A stretch of 64,000 bases of DNA from a virus: the IMG/VR virus record IMGVR_UViG_3300017754_001832, one strand, 5' to 3'. Below, one piece after another: positions 10,830 to 21,288 of the stretch. Below the pieces are notes generated by a model. That model had not been told where the DNA came from, made no database searches, and worked only from the letters and a program-made list of their open reading frames with translations. Numbering within the stretch: the stretch's first letter is position 1; every line of letters begins with the position of its first letter. The translations under genes were made by a program, and so were the position numbers.

Positions 10830-11084
10830 ATGAGCATTCGTTGGACCCTCTGGACTGCCGGCGCAGCCTACCGCCTTTGGGTGGGTCTGATGATCGGCGC
10901 CGCGATCATGGGTGGCTGCGCCTCGCCGCCCAAATACAATTGTGCGTACTGGACACAGTTCGAGCCTGACATGCAGGCGAAAAGGGAGTATTGCTTTCCC
11001 GACTGCCCGTCCTGCGGCCCTGTGATCCGCAGCCGGAACCCCTACGAAGGACTCAAGCGCGATGTCGAGCCACAAGGAACTTGA
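10830..11084 (+). CDS. Putative lipoprotein (84 aa)
   Basis: N-terminal hydrophobic segment ending in the lipobox-like IMGGC. Confidence 0.55.
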   Translation: MSIRWTLWTAGAAYRLWVGLMIGAAIMGGCASPPKYNCAYWTQFEPDMQAKREYCFPDCPSCGPVIRSRNPYEGLKRDVEPQGT

Positions 11085-11265
11085 TTGGATTATCGAGCGG
11101 GCGCCCGTCACGAAGGCTATTCGCCGGGCACAAGACCTCTCGATCAACTTCTACTACCGGGCCGACATCGGCATGTCGGAACTCATGGATGCCTGCCACA
11201 GCATCTTCTATGCGCGCCTGGTCGAGGTGGACACGAAGCACTACGGCTGCGTGCAGGAGATGTGA
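11062..11265 (+). CDS. Hypothetical protein (67 aa)
   Basis: ORF track. Confidence 0.5.
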   Translation: MSSHKELDWIIERAPVTKAIRRAQDLSINFYYRADIGMSELMDACHSIFYARLVEVDTKHYGCVQEM

Positions 11266-11474
11266 TGAGCTACGCCGCACAAGTCAGAACCATGACCGCG
11301 TCCGAGCGGTTCGAGCTAGTCAACGCACTGCTCGCGATCTCGATCCAGCGCCACGGCCCGTTGGTGATCTCCCGAGCGGATGTCGCTCTCGAACTCATGG
11401 GGGCCGCGCACAAGACGGTCTACATCAAAGACCTGCCCAACGGCGACTTCGAGGTGATGGTTCACAAGCAATGA
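11265..11474 (+). CDS. Hypothetical protein (69 aa)
   Basis: ATG overlaps the upstream TGA (MSYAAQVRTM...). Confidence 0.5.
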   Translation: MSYAAQVRTMTASERFELVNALLAISIQRHGPLVISRADVALELMGAAHKTVYIKDLPNGDFEVMVHKQ

Positions 11475-12088
11475 CCCGGCGCGAGCAGATCGAAGCGAAG
11501 ATCGCGGCCCGATCCCACTACGAGGATCGCGGATACGAGACGCCATGCCGTATCTGGGATGGCCCCAAGAGCGGCGACCCCGAGAAGACGCGGGGCCACG
11601 GCTACGGGCGCATGAACCTCGACGGCGCAACTGTTGCAGTTCACATCGCCGCGTGGGTCAACGTGAACGGCCTGATCCCGCCGCGAAAACAACTCGACCA
11701 TTTGTGCCATCAACGGGACTGCTGCGAGGAGCGACACTTGAAGCTGAAGACGCACAAGCAGAATCAGCGCAACAAGAAACCGAAGCTCTCCCTCGTCGAG
11801 GTTGACCTGGCCCACATCGAACAGCGCGTGGTCGCGGCGATGATGGATGCGAAGCCCCTGCACCGGATGCCCGGCCAGCACGAGCCGGTCGAATACGGCC
11901 ACACGATCACAGGCCGTATGCGCCGGGCCAACCCGAACCCGTGGGGTGGCTACAACGAGAACGTGCCGGCGCCTGACGGCTTCGACCCGACGAACCCGAG
12001 TGACTCCTCCTACAAGGACCAGGTCATCGGTCACGACATACCCGCAGACCGGCTTCCGCCGGCCGCGCCTATGGTGGAAGACGAATGA
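11471..12088 (+). CDS. HNH homing endonuclease (205 aa)
   Basis: ATGA overlap with the upstream gene. Motif LDHLCHQRDCCEERHL is typical of HNH_3-type nucleases. Confidence 0.8.
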   Translation: MTRREQIEAKIAARSHYEDRGYETPCRIWDGPKSGDPEKTRGHGYGRMNLDGATVAVHIAAWVNVNGLIPPRKQLDHLCHQRDCCEERHLKLKTHKQNQRNKKPKLSLVEVDLAHIEQRVVAAMMDAKPLHRMPGQHEPVEYGHTITGRMRRANPNPWGGYNENVPAPDGFDPTNPSDSSYKDQVIGHDIPADRLPPAAPMVEDE

Positions 12089-13220: not shown

Positions 13221-13613
13221 ATGGCGGCCCGCTCTAAAACTCCCAAGCTCGACGCTGCCGTGGCCTGGCTCGCACAGGCGAAGAAGGGCGAGCGTATGGA
13301 GGTCTGGCGTGGTCATCTCGACCGTGCCTGCGCCACCCCCGAGTCCAACATGAGCAACGCGCAGCGGCGGACCCACCAAGCCGCCGCGCGCAAGGCCCGC
13401 AAGCTGGGGAAGAAGCGGCCCGACCCGCCCGATCCATACGCCAAGGTCCGCGAGGAAGCCCGACTCATGATCGAGTGGCTTGAGCGCAATGAGCTTCGCG
13501 GTCTGATCGAGATCAAGATCACGGTGATGGATGCGAAGCTGCACGACCGCATCTACGAAGTCGAGTGCGCGGTCCAACGCAACGGGCTTGCAGCGGTGAG
13601 GGCACGTCGATGA
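13221..13613 (+). CDS. Hypothetical protein (130 aa)
   Basis: ORF track. Confidence 0.6.
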   Translation: MAARSKTPKLDAAVAWLAQAKKGERMEVWRGHLDRACATPESNMSNAQRRTHQAAARKARKLGKKRPDPPDPYAKVREEARLMIEWLERNELRGLIEIKITVMDAKLHDRIYEVECAVQRNGLAAVRARR

Positions 13614-14728
13614 TCCCAGCATACTACAACGAGTTCGACGAGTTCGCTGCGCAGTGGCTCCGCAACCTCATCGCGGCAGACAAGATCGCGCCCGGCGAAG
13701 TCGACTCACGCGATCTCTGGGACGTTGCGCCCGATGATCTCAAGGGCTTCGGCCAAGTCCACCTCTGCGCCGGCATCGGCATCTGGTCGCACGTCATACG
13801 ACAACTAGGAGTCCCTGATGACTACCCAATCTGGTCCGCATCCTTCCCTTGCCAGCCTTTCAGCGCGGCAGGTCAAGGACTTGGGTTTGCTGACGAGCGG
13901 CACCTATGGCCCGCCGGGCTTCACGTCATTCGAGAGCGACGCCCTGTCCGCATCGTTGGCGAACAGTCTTCAGCGAAAGCTGGACTCGCTTGGATGGAGC
14001 TTGTTCAAGCTGATCTGGAAGCCGAGGGCTATGCCGTCGGGCGGACAGATATATGCGCTGCGGGGTTCGGCGAGGCCCCAGGAAGATCGTACCATATTCG
14101 TCAACGACTCTATTGGGGTGCTGCGCAGTTGGCCGACGCCGACAAGCCGCGATCACAAAGACGGCGCGTCAATCGGGACGGCGGAGACGAATGGCTTGCT
14201 CGGGCGGGTGGCTTGGCTAGCAGGCTGGCCGACAGCGGTAGCCTCCGACGAGAAGTGGCGCTACTCCAATCAGGACGCAGCACTTCGCAGGGCAGCGAGC
14301 GGCAAGCAGATGTGTCTGGAGTCGACGGCCCATCTCGCGGCGCCATTGAGTGGGTGGGCGAGCCCGACGGCATCCGACGGCTCCGGTGGACGAACGAAGA
14401 AAACCAAGGGCGGGGGCGGGGCCTACGTGGACGCACAGGCGAGGCTGGCGGGGTGGCCGACACCTCTGGCGGCGCCGACGGGCCCGGCGAGCCACGGGCA
14501 GAGCAGCGGCAAGTATCGGGAGAAGGTTCTGGAGCTAGTCGGCGATCCGTCGATCTCATCCTCTGCAACGACCCCGAAGGTCCGGTTTACAGGCCGGTTG
14601 AGGTCGGGACATTCCCGCTGGCTTCAACGGATACCCACCGAGTGGGCCAACTATCTGCCTACGGCAACGCGCTCGACACGGAAGCCGCCAAAGCCTTCTT
14701 CGGGGCGTGGATCGAGCACGCCCCGTAG
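13610..14728 (+). CDS. DNA (cytosine-5) methyltransferase (372 aa)
   Basis: ATGA overlap start (MIPAYYNEFD...). Motifs FPCQPFSAAG (motif IV), ADERHLWP, IVGEQ, HIRQRLYW and the C-terminal GTFPLA...RVG...YGNAL (motif X). Confidence 0.85.
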   Translation: MIPAYYNEFDEFAAQWLRNLIAADKIAPGEVDSRDLWDVAPDDLKGFGQVHLCAGIGIWSHVIRQLGVPDDYPIWSASFPCQPFSAAGQGLGFADERHLWPAGLHVIRERRPVRIVGEQSSAKAGLAWMELVQADLEAEGYAVGRTDICAAGFGEAPGRSYHIRQRLYWGAAQLADADKPRSQRRRVNRDGGDEWLARAGGLASRLADSGSLRREVALLQSGRSTSQGSERQADVSGVDGPSRGAIEWVGEPDGIRRLRWTNEENQGRGRGLRGRTGEAGGVADTSGGADGPGEPRAEQRQVSGEGSGASRRSVDLILCNDPEGPVYRPVEVGTFPLASTDTHRVGQLSAYGNALDTEAAKAFFGAWIEHAP

Positions 14729-14753
14729 GAAACTTGATCGGATTCTGGGTTGA
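13818..14753 (+). CDS. ORF in the +1 frame, fully overlapping the C5-MTase gene (311 aa). Carries GWPTPxxxD repeats and an SRWLxxxPxEW tail.
   Basis: Own SD (AGGAG, 13807-13811) 6 nt before ATG 13818. Host-gene GC3 falls from about 82% to about 54% exactly here. See findings. Confidence 0.5.
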   Translation: MTTQSGPHPSLASLSARQVKDLGLLTSGTYGPPGFTSFESDALSASLANSLQRKLDSLGWSLFKLIWKPRAMPSGGQIYALRGSARPQEDRTIFVNDSIGVLRSWPTPTSRDHKDGASIGTAETNGLLGRVAWLAGWPTAVASDEKWRYSNQDAALRRAASGKQMCLESTAHLAAPLSGWASPTASDGSGGRTKKTKGGGGAYVDAQARLAGWPTPLAAPTGPASHGQSSGKYREKVLELVGDPSISSSATTPKVRFTGRLRSGHSRWLQRIPTEWANYLPTATRSTRKPPKPSSGRGSSTPRRKLDRILG

Positions 14754-18436: not shown

Positions 18437-18914
18437 GCTCGGAAACAAGGGCCACGAGGACATGCTCGGTACGCCGAAGGAACGGCTCACCTCGAAGGAC
18501 ACGAACCCGAAGGACGCCGTCGGCGTGGCGAAGGTTTCGGAGTCCTGCATCCCGCAAGGGGTCATCGGCGAACTCGCCATCGCCATGCAGGAGGGCGCTC
18601 GCAAGTACGGGCGCCACAACTACCGGATCGCCGGGGTTCGCGCCTCGGTCTACTTCGATGCTCTCATGCGCCACAGCAAGGCGTGGTGGGAGGGCGAGGA
18701 CAACGATCCGGAGTCGGGCGCGAGCCACATCACCAAGGCCATCGCGACCCTCGTGGTCCTCCGCGATGCCATGATGAACGGCAAGATGACCGACGACCGC
18801 CCGCCGCCGATGACCGACCCCGATTGGCAGCGAAAACTCAACGAACTTGCGAAAGGGCTCATCGAGAAGTATCCAGATGCCAAGCCCGCCTACACTCGCG
18901 AACCCCAGGAGTAG
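18426..18914 (+). CDS. Putative dATP/dGTP diphosphohydrolase-like protein (DUF5664-like), 162 aa
   Basis: EGARKYGRHNYR ... HITKAIATLVVLRD resembles that N-terminal domain family. This comes from memory of the family only. Confidence 0.45.
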   Translation: MTGKLGNKGHEDMLGTPKERLTSKDTNPKDAVGVAKVSESCIPQGVIGELAIAMQEGARKYGRHNYRIAGVRASVYFDALMRHSKAWWEGEDNDPESGASHITKAIATLVVLRDAMMNGKMTDDRPPPMTDPDWQRKLNELAKGLIEKYPDAKPAYTREPQE

Positions 18915-18919
18915 CCGTC

Positions 18920-20794
18920 ATGGCCGTCAAGCCCAAGTCACCGCAGATCACCAAAGCCCAACTCCAGAAGTGGGTGAACCTCGTAAACCGGCTTGACGGC
19001 AACGTCTCACGCGCGGCGGAAGAAGCAGGCATCTCCGCCCGCCAACTCAAGCGCCACCTCGACACCTGCAAGAAACGCGGCGTCGTTCCGCCGAAGCCCT
19101 TCAACCCCCAGAACGCCATCCGATCAACCGACATCGCCGACGACGAACTGCACGATGTCTGGAACGTCTACGAGCGATACGGATACGACGCACAAGCGAC
19201 CGCCGAAGCTCTCGGCATCCACGAGTCCTCCCTCCGCAACCGCATCAAGAAAGCGCAGCACAAGTTCGGCTACGTGAAGAAGTCCCTCGGGGTGACTCAC
19301 GCGCAGGCCGCCGCGCCGCTGCCGCTCCCCGACGCCGGCAAGATCAACTACTTCATGCTGACGACGGCGCAGAACAACACCAAGGTCCACGACGCAACGT
19401 GGGCTTCGGGCATCAACCTCGCGAAGCACTACGACGCCGAGATCAAGGTCTCGACCTTCACCTACATCGGCAACGAGGAAGGCTCGCAGAAGCGCGGGCA
19501 CGAGAAGTCGGGCGAGGCCATGGGCCGCAAGGTCGAGGACCGCTGGTATGATCCGCGCGTCGTCCCGTACATCTCCGACGAGTTCCAACAGCTTGCGCCG
19601 GGTCTCGTGTGGTGCGGCCACTCCAACACACTGCCGACCGCGTCCGACCCGCTCCGTGGCACGCAGTCTCTCAATGGCCGTGCGTCTGGTGTCTGGCCCC
19701 ACACGCGGATCGAGATGCGCCCGGTCGCCACGGCTGCCGGTGAAGCCACCAAGTTCAACTTCACGACCGGCGCCGTCACGCTGCGCAACTACATCCAGAA
19801 GCGGGCCGGCATCGCGGCGGAGTTCTACCACTGCTTCGGCTTCCTGCTCGTCGCCGTCGACTCGAACGGCAATTGGTGGTGCCGCCAACTCAACGCCGAT
19901 AGCGAAGGCAACATCTACGACCTCGACCTGCTCGCGACTCCCGAAGGCGTGTTCGAGTGGATCGACGAGAAGAAGGGCGGCCTCGAAGGTCTGGTCTATG
20001 GCGACATCCACCGCTCGAAGATCGACGAGACGATCCGCGATGCGACGTGGGGCCCCGGCGGCCTCGTGGACTTCCTCAAGCCCAAGGTGCAGGTCTTCCA
20101 CGACCTCCTCAACTTCAACCCGTCGCACCACTCGCGCAAAGACCCGCACGAGATGTATAAGCAGCGCAAGCGCGCTGAAGACCTGGTGTACGGCGAGATC
20201 GAGGGCGACGGCTCGTTCCTCGATTGGACGCACCGCCCGTGGTCGCGCGAAGTCGTGGTCGACTCCAACCACCACCGTCACCTCGACCGCTTCCTGAAGG
20301 AAGTCGATTGGCGTGACGACCTCAACAATGCGCGCGTCATCCTCGACATGAACCTCGCGTGGCTCGACGCCATCGACAAGGGCGAGGAAGAGGACTTCCT
20401 TGCCTACGAGTGGCAGATCAGGAAGATGGGCTACGGCAAGCACGCCCACTTCATGAACCTCACCAGCGAGAAGCCCGAGAAGCTGAGCCTCGTGCTCTGC
20501 AAGGGCAACGGCGGGGGTATCGAGGTCGGCGCGCACCACGGGGATCGCGGGCCGAACGGCGCACGCGGCACGCCGCAGAACCTATCGAAGATGGGCCGCA
20601 AGAATGTCATCGGCGACAAGCACTCGCCGGGCATCTGGGGTGGCACCTACGTTGCAGGCATGACCGGCAAGCCGCGTCAGGGCTACAACATCGGGCCGGG
20701 CTCGTGGGCTGCCGCGCACGTGCCGATTTACCCGAACGGAAAGCGGCAAGTCCTGTTGTTCTGGAAAGGCATGCCGCACGAACCGCGCGGTTAG
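18920..20794 (+). CDS. Large hypothetical protein (624 aa) with two N-terminal HTH-like segments and His-rich phosphoesterase-like motifs
   Basis: AGGAG RBS. NVSRAAEEAGISARQLKRHL and AEALGIHESSLRNRIKKA. YGDIH, FHDLLN and DSNHHRH appear in the order of calcineurin-like motifs. Confidence 0.7.
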   Translation: MAVKPKSPQITKAQLQKWVNLVNRLDGNVSRAAEEAGISARQLKRHLDTCKKRGVVPPKPFNPQNAIRSTDIADDELHDVWNVYERYGYDAQATAEALGIHESSLRNRIKKAQHKFGYVKKSLGVTHAQAAAPLPLPDAGKINYFMLTTAQNNTKVHDATWASGINLAKHYDAEIKVSTFTYIGNEEGSQKRGHEKSGEAMGRKVEDRWYDPRVVPYISDEFQQLAPGLVWCGHSNTLPTASDPLRGTQSLNGRASGVWPHTRIEMRPVATAAGEATKFNFTTGAVTLRNYIQKRAGIAAEFYHCFGFLLVAVDSNGNWWCRQLNADSEGNIYDLDLLATPEGVFEWIDEKKGGLEGLVYGDIHRSKIDETIRDATWGPGGLVDFLKPKVQVFHDLLNFNPSHHSRKDPHEMYKQRKRAEDLVYGEIEGDGSFLDWTHRPWSREVVVDSNHHRHLDRFLKEVDWRDDLNNARVILDMNLAWLDAIDKGEEEDFLAYEWQIRKMGYGKHAHFMNLTSEKPEKLSLVLCKGNGGGIEVGAHHGDRGPNGARGTPQNLSKMGRKNVIGDKHSPGIWGGTYVAGMTGKPRQGYNIGPGSWAAAHVPIYPNGKRQVLLFWKGMPHEPRG

Positions 20795-20802
20795 AGGGAA
20801 GC

Positions 20803-21288
20803 ATGAACCATATTGCAATGATCGTCGCCCATCAGTTCGTCACGAACAAAGAGCGCGTTGAATACGTCCGGAAGATCACCGCCGACTTCGAGGAGCGCAG
20901 GCCGCGCGGATACGCGGCGACCGGGTGCCTGCTTGAACCCGTCTACGGCGCCGCCATCGTGGCGTTCAACGACATCCCGACTGCAGTCGAGAGCGACTAC
21001 TCGTCGACTCCTCGCGGCGTTGAGCGGGCGCCGAAGTTCGCCGCGCTCGGGCACGCCGAGGTCAACGCCATCGCGTTCGCGGCCTACGCCGGCACTGCGA
21101 CGGCGGGCGCCACGATGTCGCTGGCCTGGTTCCCGTGCATCAACTGCGCGGCAGCCATCGTGAAGGCAGGCATCAAGCGTGTCGTCGCGACCGAGCCGAA
21201 CTACGACTACAAGCCCGAGCAATACGACTTCCGTGGCGCTCGAAAGATTCTGGAAGACGCAGGCGTCATCGTCTGCTTCGAGAAGTAG
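20803..21288 (+). CDS. dCMP/cytidine deaminase family zinc enzyme (161 aa)
   Basis: HAEVNAI and PCINCAAAIVKAGIKRVV (H-A-E ... P-C-x-x-C). TAGAGGGAA RBS. Confidence 0.8.
   Translation: MNHIAMIVAHQFVTNKERVEYVRKITADFEERRPRGYAATGCLLEPVYGAAIVAFNDIPTAVESDYSSTPRGVERAPKFAALGHAEVNAIAFAAYAGTATAGATMSLAWFPCINCAAAIVKAGIKRVVATEPNYDYKPEQYDFRGARKILEDAGVIVCFEK

Follow-up and report, generated by a model that had tools for sequence, protein, structure and literature searches.

Does a phage DNA methyltransferase gene carry a second long gene in an overlapping frame of the same strand, and if so, what do the two products make together? This question is raised by a C5 cytosine DNA methyltransferase gene in a stretch of viral DNA of 64,000 nucleotides (nt), IMG/VR virus record IMGVR_UViG_3300017754_001832, the whole of which is referred to here as the window. 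A preliminary description, made from the sequence alone, noted a second open reading frame (ORF), frame B, in the +1 frame over the methyltransferase frame, frame A, and offered three explanations: a real long overlapping gene pair, an enzyme that needs frameshifting, or related database proteins that have been annotated in different frames. Our data supported the first of these through the conservation of both frames, a suppression of synonymous change in frame A that is limited to the overlap, and frame-specific ratios of nonsynonymous to synonymous substitution (omega) that show selection on frame B. Frame A is a C5 DNA methyltransferase, and frame B, rather than being a shadow ORF, codes for a protein of its own and evolves under purifying selection. 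We consider it likely that the two overlapping same-strand frames together specify a C5 cytosine DNA methyltransferase of two chains, with a catalytic alpha chain and an internally initiated beta chain that supplies a docking module, recognition modules and a motif-IX-like tail.

Frame A consists of a C5 DNA methyltransferase catalytic domain, followed by an unconstrained spacer and then by a C terminus with motif X. Its features, read from the ORF and its translation, are these:

13610-14728, plus strand: frame A coding sequence (alpha chain, 372 residues), ATG at 13610, stop TAG at 14726-14728
13763-13786, plus strand: motif I region, LCAGIGIW
13844-13864, plus strand: motif IV, FPCQPFS
13889-13912, plus strand: ADERHLWP
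14093-14116, plus strand: motif VIII, HIRQRLYW
14612-14674, plus strand: FPLA...RVG...YGNA
from 14660, plus strand: motif X, YGNA(L), with YGNA at 14660-14671

All expected catalytic and S-adenosylmethionine (AdoMet) motifs were found in this frame, namely, LCAGIG (I), FPCQPFS (IV), GEQ (VI), HIRQRLYW (VIII) and YGNAL (X), with the usual ENV of motif VI replaced by EQV or EQS. Across 84 frame A homologues, C81, Q82, E118 of motif VI, R164, R166, G352 and N353 are invariant, so that the catalytic residues are fixed at both ends of the protein; the center is hypervariable, 60 to 250 residues long and rich in R, G, E and D. The Pfam profile PF00145 matches frame A with 28.2 bits (cutoff, 22), the aligned part being only residues 71 to 118 around motif IV, and the PHROGs family phrog_363 (“DNA methyltransferase”) matches with an E value of 4e-54. 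In the AlphaFold2 (AF2) model, residues 1 to 185 form a Rossmann-type domain with a predicted local distance difference test score (pLDDT) above 90, residues 188 to 311 are disordered with a pLDDT below 50, and residues 312 to 372 form a hairpin and helices of moderate score. Foldseek aligned this model with M.HhaI (E value, 8.6e-8) and M.HaeIII (1.4e-6) over about 176 to 200 columns. Between motifs VIII and X, frame A shows neither a constrained variable (target-recognition) region nor a motif IX, as this part of it has an omega of 0.95, a hypervariable length and a pLDDT below 50.

Frame B overlaps frame A by 911 nt, and its stop lies 25 nt beyond that of frame A. It begins with an N-terminal helix-hairpin module (N-module), continues with four modules of the WPTP type and closes with a motif-IX-like tail. 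Read from the sequence and its translation, its features are as follows:

13806-13808, plus strand: frame B stop codon TAG, just upstream of the frame B ATG
13807-13820, plus strand: frame B start, AGGAG at 13807-13811, 6-nt spacer, ATG at 13818-13820
13818-14753, plus strand: frame B coding sequence (putative beta chain, 311 residues), +1 relative to frame A, stop TGA at 14751-14753
13941-14072, plus strand: N-module in zone 2 (defined below), helix at 13941-13994 and beta-hairpin at 13995-14072
14127-14153, plus strand: WPTP module 1, SWPTPTSRD
14223-14249, plus strand: WPTP module 2, GWPTAVASD
14352-14378, plus strand: WPTP module 3, GWASPTASD
14451-14477, plus strand: WPTP module 4, GWPTPLAAP
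14613-14645, plus strand: motif-IX-like tail, SRWLQRIPTEW
14658-14675, plus strand: PTATRS, after the tail

Both ORFs, the frame A motifs, the four repeats and the tail are thus present as first described, and the pairs that had been called frame-shift images of each other (FPLA/SRWL, RVG/EW, YGNA/TAT and LADA/WPTP) do share the same nucleotides. In the AF2 model of frame B, only the helix (residues 38 to 57) and the beta-hairpin (residues 63 to 85) are confidently predicted, in the segment ...LGWSLFKLIWKPRAMPSGGQIYALRGSA. After ...LGWSLFKLIWKPRAMPSGGQIYALRGSA, the family consensus continues with GWPTPTTRDHKDG, then with more LAGWPTP modules and finally with SGGQLNPAHSRWLMGLPxEWDDCAPTATRS. The matches of frame B in PHROGs are phrog_1008 and phrog_31772, both labeled “DNA methyltransferase.” The frame B family is large: there are at least 1484 homologues, and a frame B profile finds 20,743 representatives of clusters at 50% identity at an E value of 1e-3 or below, 8,358 of them at 1e-30 or below.

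Frame B has its own initiation signals. Its Shine-Dalgarno sequence and ATG sit within the frame A codons CTA GGA GTC CCT GAT GAC, and codon counts over the long ORFs of the window (63% GC), given here per 1000 codons, bear out the statement that rare codons are used there: CTA occurs at 1.3 versus 37 for its synonym CTC, GGA at 7.2 versus 55 for GGC, CCT at 5.2 versus 26 for CCG, and GAT at 13.3 versus 47 for GAC. Of the figures initially given for G or C at third codon positions, 54/100 in the first 100 overlapped codons of frame A and 71/100 in frame B are exact; the value for frame A before the overlap is 52/69 (75%) and not 51/62 (82%). Most relatives carry the start signals of frame B elsewhere, 32 codons upstream of the ATG of the window, as AGG AGY ATT GAA GAT G (AGGAG-N8-ATG), which lies over the invariant R34-S35-I36-E37-D38 of frame A. 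The codons chosen there are AGG for R34 in 30/82 loci, versus 8% of Arg codons in these genes, and GAT for D38 in 61/78 loci, versus 38% overall. The window lacks this usual start, having GAC at that place and the frame B stop at 13806, and carries instead the downstream ATG with its own AGGAG, an ATG that is also present in several relatives. At the other start, that of frame A, an upstream ORF of 130 residues (13221-13613; no PHROGs match) ends in a stop codon that overlaps the frame A start codon in the ATGA at 13610-13613, which suggests translational coupling between these two ORFs.

Selection on the two frames was measured in two ways. A synplot-style statistic, the ratio of observed to expected synonymous-codon identity between sequences sharing an amino acid, was calculated over 63 dereplicated loci, and OLGenie-style substitution counts, classed by their effect in each frame, were taken from 20 disjoint close sequence pairs, with bootstrap intervals. 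The locus falls into five zones:

13610-13817, plus strand: zone 1, coding in frame A only, omega A 0.07, omega B 0.93 (control)
13835-14100, plus strand: zone 2, dual coding, omega A 0.16 (0.11-0.21), omega B 0.45 (0.30-0.64)
14110-14510, plus strand: zone 3, coding in frame B only, omega A 0.95 (0.85-1.06), omega B 0.29 (0.19-0.40)
14515-14660, plus strand: zone 4, dual coding, omega A 0.21, omega B 0.19
14661-14728, plus strand: zone 5, essentially coding in frame A only, omega A 0.07, omega B 0.62

Zone 2 holds motifs IV and VI (GEQ) and the start of motif VIII of alpha together with the N-module of beta. Zone 3 holds the WPTP modules of beta, with frame A reduced to a stop-free spacer. 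In zone 4, the motif-IX-like tail of beta lies over a conserved hairpin before motif X of alpha (14549-14623) and RVG, and in zone 5 motif X and the C-terminal helix of alpha are accompanied by the unconserved end of frame B, which extends to 14753.

The synonymous-rate comparison that the preliminary description had suggested gave a clear answer, with frame A synonymous sites suppressed over the overlap and neither before nor after it. With frame A as the reference, the ratio of observed to expected identity is 1.0 to 1.3 at 13610-13820, 1.6 to 2.5 at about 13835-14100, 1.7 to 3.0 at 14480-14645 and 1.2 from 14660 on, and the onset of the suppression coincides with the frame B ATG of the window. 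With frame B as the reference, it is 2.0 to 3.2 at 13809-14094, 1.03 to 1.3 at 14109-14514 and 1.7 to 2.4 at 14514-14700, so that the synonymous-site profiles of either frame yield the same zones. The lineage of the window itself tells the same story in comparisons with the metagenomic loci L084 and L085 (87% and 85% nucleotide identity, respectively). Against L084, changes in zone 3 that are synonymous in B and nonsynonymous in A amount to 37/91.5, those nonsynonymous in both frames to 14.5/174, and changes synonymous in A drop from 20/41.7 in zone 1 to 5.5/62.8 in zone 2. In a second, Tadhana-related clade, the synonymous ratio is 0.95 to 1.06 before frame A codon 55 and 1.5 to 2.1 after about codon 61, with the onset at the start of the +1 ORF.

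The stop codons of zone 3 provided a further tool. None of the 63 dereplicated loci has a frame A stop there, and shuffles that are synonymous in B create 0.6 to 7.7 on average; under shuffling, a locus keeps a stop-free frame A with a mean probability of 0.10, and the log10 P values add up to -84. In this zone, frame A is neutral with respect to its amino acids yet stop-free, and it must therefore be read through.

We furthermore determined how widely the pair is conserved, fetching loci with frame A queries alone, which avoids circularity. A frame B homologue was found at +1 in 243/243 related loci. These comprise a viral set of 83 loci in addition to the window (80 viral contigs and 3 phage records; E values of 1e-14 to 1e-47), a set from bacterial genomes that includes prophages of alpha-, beta-, gamma- and deltaproteobacteria and others (80/80, with at least 224 open codons), and viral contigs related to Tadhana, a deeply divergent clade with canonical motif order and GC contents of 0.33 to 0.60 (80/80). 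In 82 viral relatives, the +1 frame is open for 255 to 421 codons, versus 34 to 118 for the +2 frame, and in a contig of 33% GC (L246) both frame 0 and frame +1 run without a stop over about 620 nt (about 200 codons), the +2 frame having 35 stops. Searches of annotated phages with the A and B proteins (tblastn) returned the same loci in distant phages, with the frames offset by one. Genome contigs scanned with the single window protein gave no close relative, and scanning with the alignment found relatives. The plasmid search returned only phage-plasmid copies with frame A annotated and no restriction-modification context.

Annotation of these loci is uneven, and the suggestion that different frames have been annotated for the database proteins does hold, as a consequence of the overlap. 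Aeromonas phage AeroV_348 has A only, Burkholderia phage phiBtTUL1a has B only, and Xanthomonas phage PhiXhv-28, Escherichia coli phage K1G and Paenibacillus phage Tadhana have both frames annotated as overlapping coding sequences. For the closest metagenomic relatives (L084, 3001-3936; L085, 181-1116; L086, 1236-2168; L087, 1094-2026), gene callers took B and dropped A, and in L084 this choice leaves about 200 nt upstream with no called gene. In a few loci, frame A is interrupted. A viral contig of 36% GC (L238) has a frame A stop at about 1268, at the catalytic Cys of motif IV (GGFP*), with A otherwise open to 2048 and B open at 1182-1995; this stop could be a sequencing error, a pseudogene or a recoding site. 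Three further loci with B open and A interrupted, L037 (A stop at 1743), L091 (A ends at 1791) and L151 (A ends at 1251), may be pseudogenes, assembly errors or AquI-like layouts.

What frame B encodes can be approached through Mycobacterium phage Rita, whose gp76 is a single-chain enzyme. There, LLPTPxAxD repeats and APAFSEWMMGWPAGW are read in frame with PCQPFS, ENV and RRER, directly before IIGNGVVP. Residues 137 to 284 of frame B align with residues 201 to 358 of Rita gp76 in hhalign (probability, 92%; E value, 6e-7), and the beta tail SRWLQRIPTEW aligns with FSEWMMGWPAGW, directly before motif X in that protein, in a segment that curated profiles do not cover. The frame B protein of Paenibacillus phage Tadhana aligns over hairpin, modules and tail (E value, 7e-13). 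Since frame B matches segments that Rita gp76 reads in frame, it appears to be the counterpart of the variable region and, by position and pattern, of motif IX, with frame A supplying the rest. The preliminary description had matched the tail to the C-terminal signature of other methylase-like phage proteins; this was correct, and the database proteins concerned are frame B products of the same family. A comparison of the profile of frame B with the short +1 ORF of Rita was not significant (E value, 0.017; probability, 2.6%), and chimeric A-B-A sequences built for Pfam alignment of motifs IX and X brought no gain. A likeness of WPTPTTRDHKDG to the Dcm segment TLSARYYKDG was dropped as evidence, since hhalign found nothing when the B profile was compared with Dcm of E. 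coli. “Overprinted” should not be taken to mean a de novo origin for the whole of frame B, as its WPTP modules and tail are homologous to segments read in frame by Rita gp76, the one single-chain phage methyltransferase compared; only the N-terminal module, over motifs IV to VIII, looks like a true overprint.

Considering these data, we propose the following model for the locus. Alpha would contribute the large AdoMet-binding and catalytic domain with motifs I, IV (PCQ), VI (GEQ), VIII (RQR) and X (YGNA). In place of the variable region and motif IX of single-chain enzymes, it would carry a spacer of about 130 predicted-disordered residues, which would only have to stay free of stop codons for ribosomes to arrive at motif X. 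Beta would be initiated at its own Shine-Dalgarno sequence and ATG inside the alpha coding sequence. Its N-terminal helix and beta-hairpin module, overprinted on motifs IV to VIII, probably docks on alpha, its four WPTP-type modules probably recognize the target, and its tail would act in the manner of motif IX. Alpha and beta would then assemble into an active enzyme that methylates phage DNA. The structure models agree with this two-chain picture, with residues 1 to 185 of alpha and the helix-hairpin of beta as the confident parts. Among ten scanned neighboring ORFs, which are phage-like and include an HNH endonuclease and a DNA transfer protein, there was no match to a restriction enzyme, and the enzyme therefore looks like an orphan, antirestriction methylase.

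Several points weigh against this model. The label “motif IX” for the tail draws on position, pattern and a single hhalign alignment with one single-chain enzyme from a phage; the motif-IX region is outside the reach of Pfam even in the single-chain Rita gp76, and the comparison of the frame B profile with E. coli Dcm by hhalign gave no match. Frame B itself matched nothing in Pfam, NCBIfam or PDB sequence searches, and about 80% of its AF2 model lies below a pLDDT of 70, with a mean of 56.4. In M.EcoHK31I, an enzyme of similar architecture discussed below, the predicted target-recognition domain has been assigned to alpha, whereas here beta alone has constrained sequence between motifs VIII and X. 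Finally, translation of both chains, their association, the identity of the chain that reads DNA, and the activity and biological role of the enzyme are parts of the model that we infer.

The same predicted nonglobularity of most of frame B and its lack of a curated family match would also suit another scenario, in which frame B encodes a real protein that is not a methyltransferase subunit, for example, an antirestriction, DNA-binding or regulatory protein. We regard this as unlikely. The modules and tail of B have homologous counterparts within a bona fide C5 methyltransferase of one chain, and in the AquI-like relatives (Phanphagia gp66 and the loci L195 and L199) the same frame also carries motif X. 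Frame A alone, moreover, is without a constrained variable region or motif IX, and B co-occurs with A in all 243 loci.

Considerably less probable still is the scenario in which the two frames are joined by recoding. In this scenario, translation starts in A, shifts by +1 after motif VIII into B for the WPTP modules and motif IX, and shifts by -1 back into A for motif X, producing one chain with the canonical order I to VIII, target-recognition domain, IX, X. The nucleotide order is indeed canonical, with motif VIII in A (14093-14116), the WPTP modules and the motif-IX-like tail in B (14127-14645) and motif X in A (14660-14671), and single-chain relatives with the same elements exist, as in Rita gp76. 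However, the search for slippery sites proposed in the preliminary description was negative: none of 82 loci has an X_XXY_YYZ heptamer in frame B between the motif-IX-like tail and motif X, or a homopolymer run at either junction. Selection acts on frame B already upstream of where the first shift would fall (omega B of 0.45 in zone 2), both frames are constrained in zone 4, and frame B has its own conserved Shine-Dalgarno sequence and ATG. Frame A, furthermore, remains stop-free through zone 3, which a frameshifted product would never read in that frame. The earlier proposal of obligatory frameshifting was thus not borne out; a minor frameshift product may accompany alpha and beta.

That frame B has no product at all, its openness and conservation being by-products of GC-rich composition and selection on A, has next to no probability, and both the selection results and the low-GC loci refute it. 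Long ORFs in alternative frames are common at the 63% GC of the window, and within-gene synonymous shuffles sometimes give similar +1 ORF lengths in GC-rich members, but the +1 ORF is kept at 33% to 45% GC, substitutions in zone 3 follow a frame B coding pattern (omega B 0.29, omega A 0.95), and in two independent clades the synonymous sites of A show saturation ahead of the overlap and suppression within it.

The two-chain methyltransferase that we propose is not without parallel. A 2012 report names only M.AquI and M.EcoHK31I as C5 methyltransferases made of two polypeptides (PMC3404938). For M.EcoHK31I of E. coli HK31, which recognizes YGGCCR, published accounts describe two chains that are both needed, with beta encoded in another frame of the alpha gene; alpha holds motifs I to VIII, X and the predicted target-recognition domain, and beta holds motif IX (PMC2836561, PMC3404938). 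Beta associates less strongly with alpha when it is shortened from its N terminus, and it can start at internal Met codons (PMC2836561). It is the only laboratory-studied enzyme known with an overlapping-frame two-chain layout. The window resembles it, by architecture only, in that the second chain lies in a different frame within the gene for the large chain (B at +1, with the 911-nt overlap). Analogously, the N terminus of beta is tied to association there and frame B has a constrained, folded N-module here, and alternative internal starts are matched by the use, in the window, of an ATG different from that of most relatives. Apart from the position of the target-recognition domain, the two differ in that M.EcoHK31I belongs to a restriction-modification system, whereas no restriction enzyme is found among the ten scanned neighbors here, and in that frame B, ending 25 nt past the A stop, is not strictly inside the alpha gene.

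M.AquI (CYCGRG) has motifs I to VIII in alpha and IX and X in beta, split within the variable region (PMC3404938). It shares with our locus a natural split of a C5 methyltransferase into two chains within the variable region, and the split is exactly of this kind in Phanphagia gp65/gp66, L195 and L199; the window differs from M.AquI in having motif X in frame A and a beta that is nested rather than following. In these AquI-like relatives, the overlap is about 250 to 300 nt, versus about 910 nt in the window. Rita gp76 shares PCQPFS, DERHLWP, repeated (L/W)PTPxAxD modules and xFSxWxMGxPxxW followed by GNxV, but reads all these elements in one frame, with only a short +1 ORF of 138 residues over motifs IV to VIII. 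A different kind of parallel is the ShiLan-type element, an HNH endonuclease concealed out of frame within the DNA methylase gene of an actinophage (PMC11855218). There, too, a phage methylase gene contains another ORF in a different frame, and what is read in the host frame is a tolerated stop-free loop (PMC11855218); unlike this mobile homing endonuclease, the second frame in the window would encode part of the methyltransferase itself and is vertically conserved across the family.

Within the superfamily, three layouts can be recognized. In the AquI-like layout, gp65 of Mycobacterium phage Phanphagia carries motifs I to VIII and then a stop, and it overlaps by 250 nt gp66, which reads the hairpin, two LLPTP modules, IX and X in the +1 frame; L195 and L199 belong here, and past motif VIII their frame A is crowded with stops. 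The EcoHK31I-like layout is that of the window, K1G, Tadhana, L246 and Synechococcus phage Ssp-JY42; in it, beta ends right after the motif-IX-like tail, and the segment before motif X and motif X itself are read in the alpha frame, which stays open. The near-single-chain layout is that of Rita gp76, with nearly everything in alpha and the +1 ORF of 138 residues, which resembles the N-module and two modules, though not significantly. A +1 module over motifs IV to VIII is common to both split layouts, and the Rita ORF only suggests its presence there.

Some of these loci showed further peculiarities. In Rita (L090; 1547-1963 versus 1198-2490), both frames contain LLPTP-type modules, two in the +1 ORF and three more downstream in A, the first two lying where frame A reads junk-like sequence; phage Jarcob has a match to the Rita +1 ORF with 99% amino acid identity, and its methylase is annotated as two genes. 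In Ssp-JY42 (L174; 1022-1636), an unannotated +1 ORF within the annotated methyltransferase of 276 residues, with the hairpin, one LWPTPTA module and LNPTWVEWLQGLPTGW, looks like a minimal beta chain. The annotation of Gordonia phage Bibwit (L173; 448-2157) joins its DNA methylase gene from two pieces, between which a LAGLIDADG endonuclease gene lies; genes of this family can thus be interrupted in yet another way.

These layouts open the way for a broader hypothesis, to which we give somewhat less than an even chance. The overlapped alpha/beta layout may be general, and possibly ancestral, in a very large superfamily to which C5 methyltransferases of phages and prophages belong, found in phages of Proteobacteria, Firmicutes, Actinobacteria and Cyanobacteria. 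Its core may be the +1 docking module on motifs IV to VIII, with recognition modules, IX and X having moved repeatedly between chains via compensated frameshifts; such moves would account for the AquI-like, EcoHK31I-like and near-single-chain layouts. The tandem WPTP modules of beta, which vary in number, may, in addition, serve as a series of recognition domains and so give multispecific protection.

The overlap of about 910 nt on the same strand, about 410 nt of it with purifying selection on both frames, is conserved across phyla in double-stranded DNA phages, and its A-only, B-only and dual zones act as built-in controls, making it a clean example of long dual coding. It is of a known but very rarely documented kind, the distribution of which is far wider than the searched literature suggests; our full-text literature searches returned the M.EcoHK31I and ShiLan cases but no description of a phage-wide overlap. 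If the two-chain reading is true, the exception hitherto represented by two-chain C5 enzymes extends to thousands of sequence clusters, and many “hypothetical proteins” in the databases would be beta chains. The inconsistent annotation would likewise be explained, with gene callers picking either frame, the annotation pipeline PGAP having no beta model, and PHROGs splitting the frames into separate “DNA methyltransferase” families. The finding also bears on the prediction of phage methylation specificity and antirestriction, on cloning, as alpha alone may be inactive, and on the design of split methyltransferases.

Two neighboring regions of the window deserve mention. The HNH endonuclease lies at 10991-12088 (phrog_1872; E value, 9e-28), about 1.5 kb upstream of the methyltransferase. 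Downstream, an ORF of 309 residues (20359-21288) with a dCMP-deaminase-like match at its C terminus overlaps the 703-residue “DNA transfer protein” ORF (18683-20794) by about 435 nt in another frame, and the true start of the shorter ORF is probably downstream.

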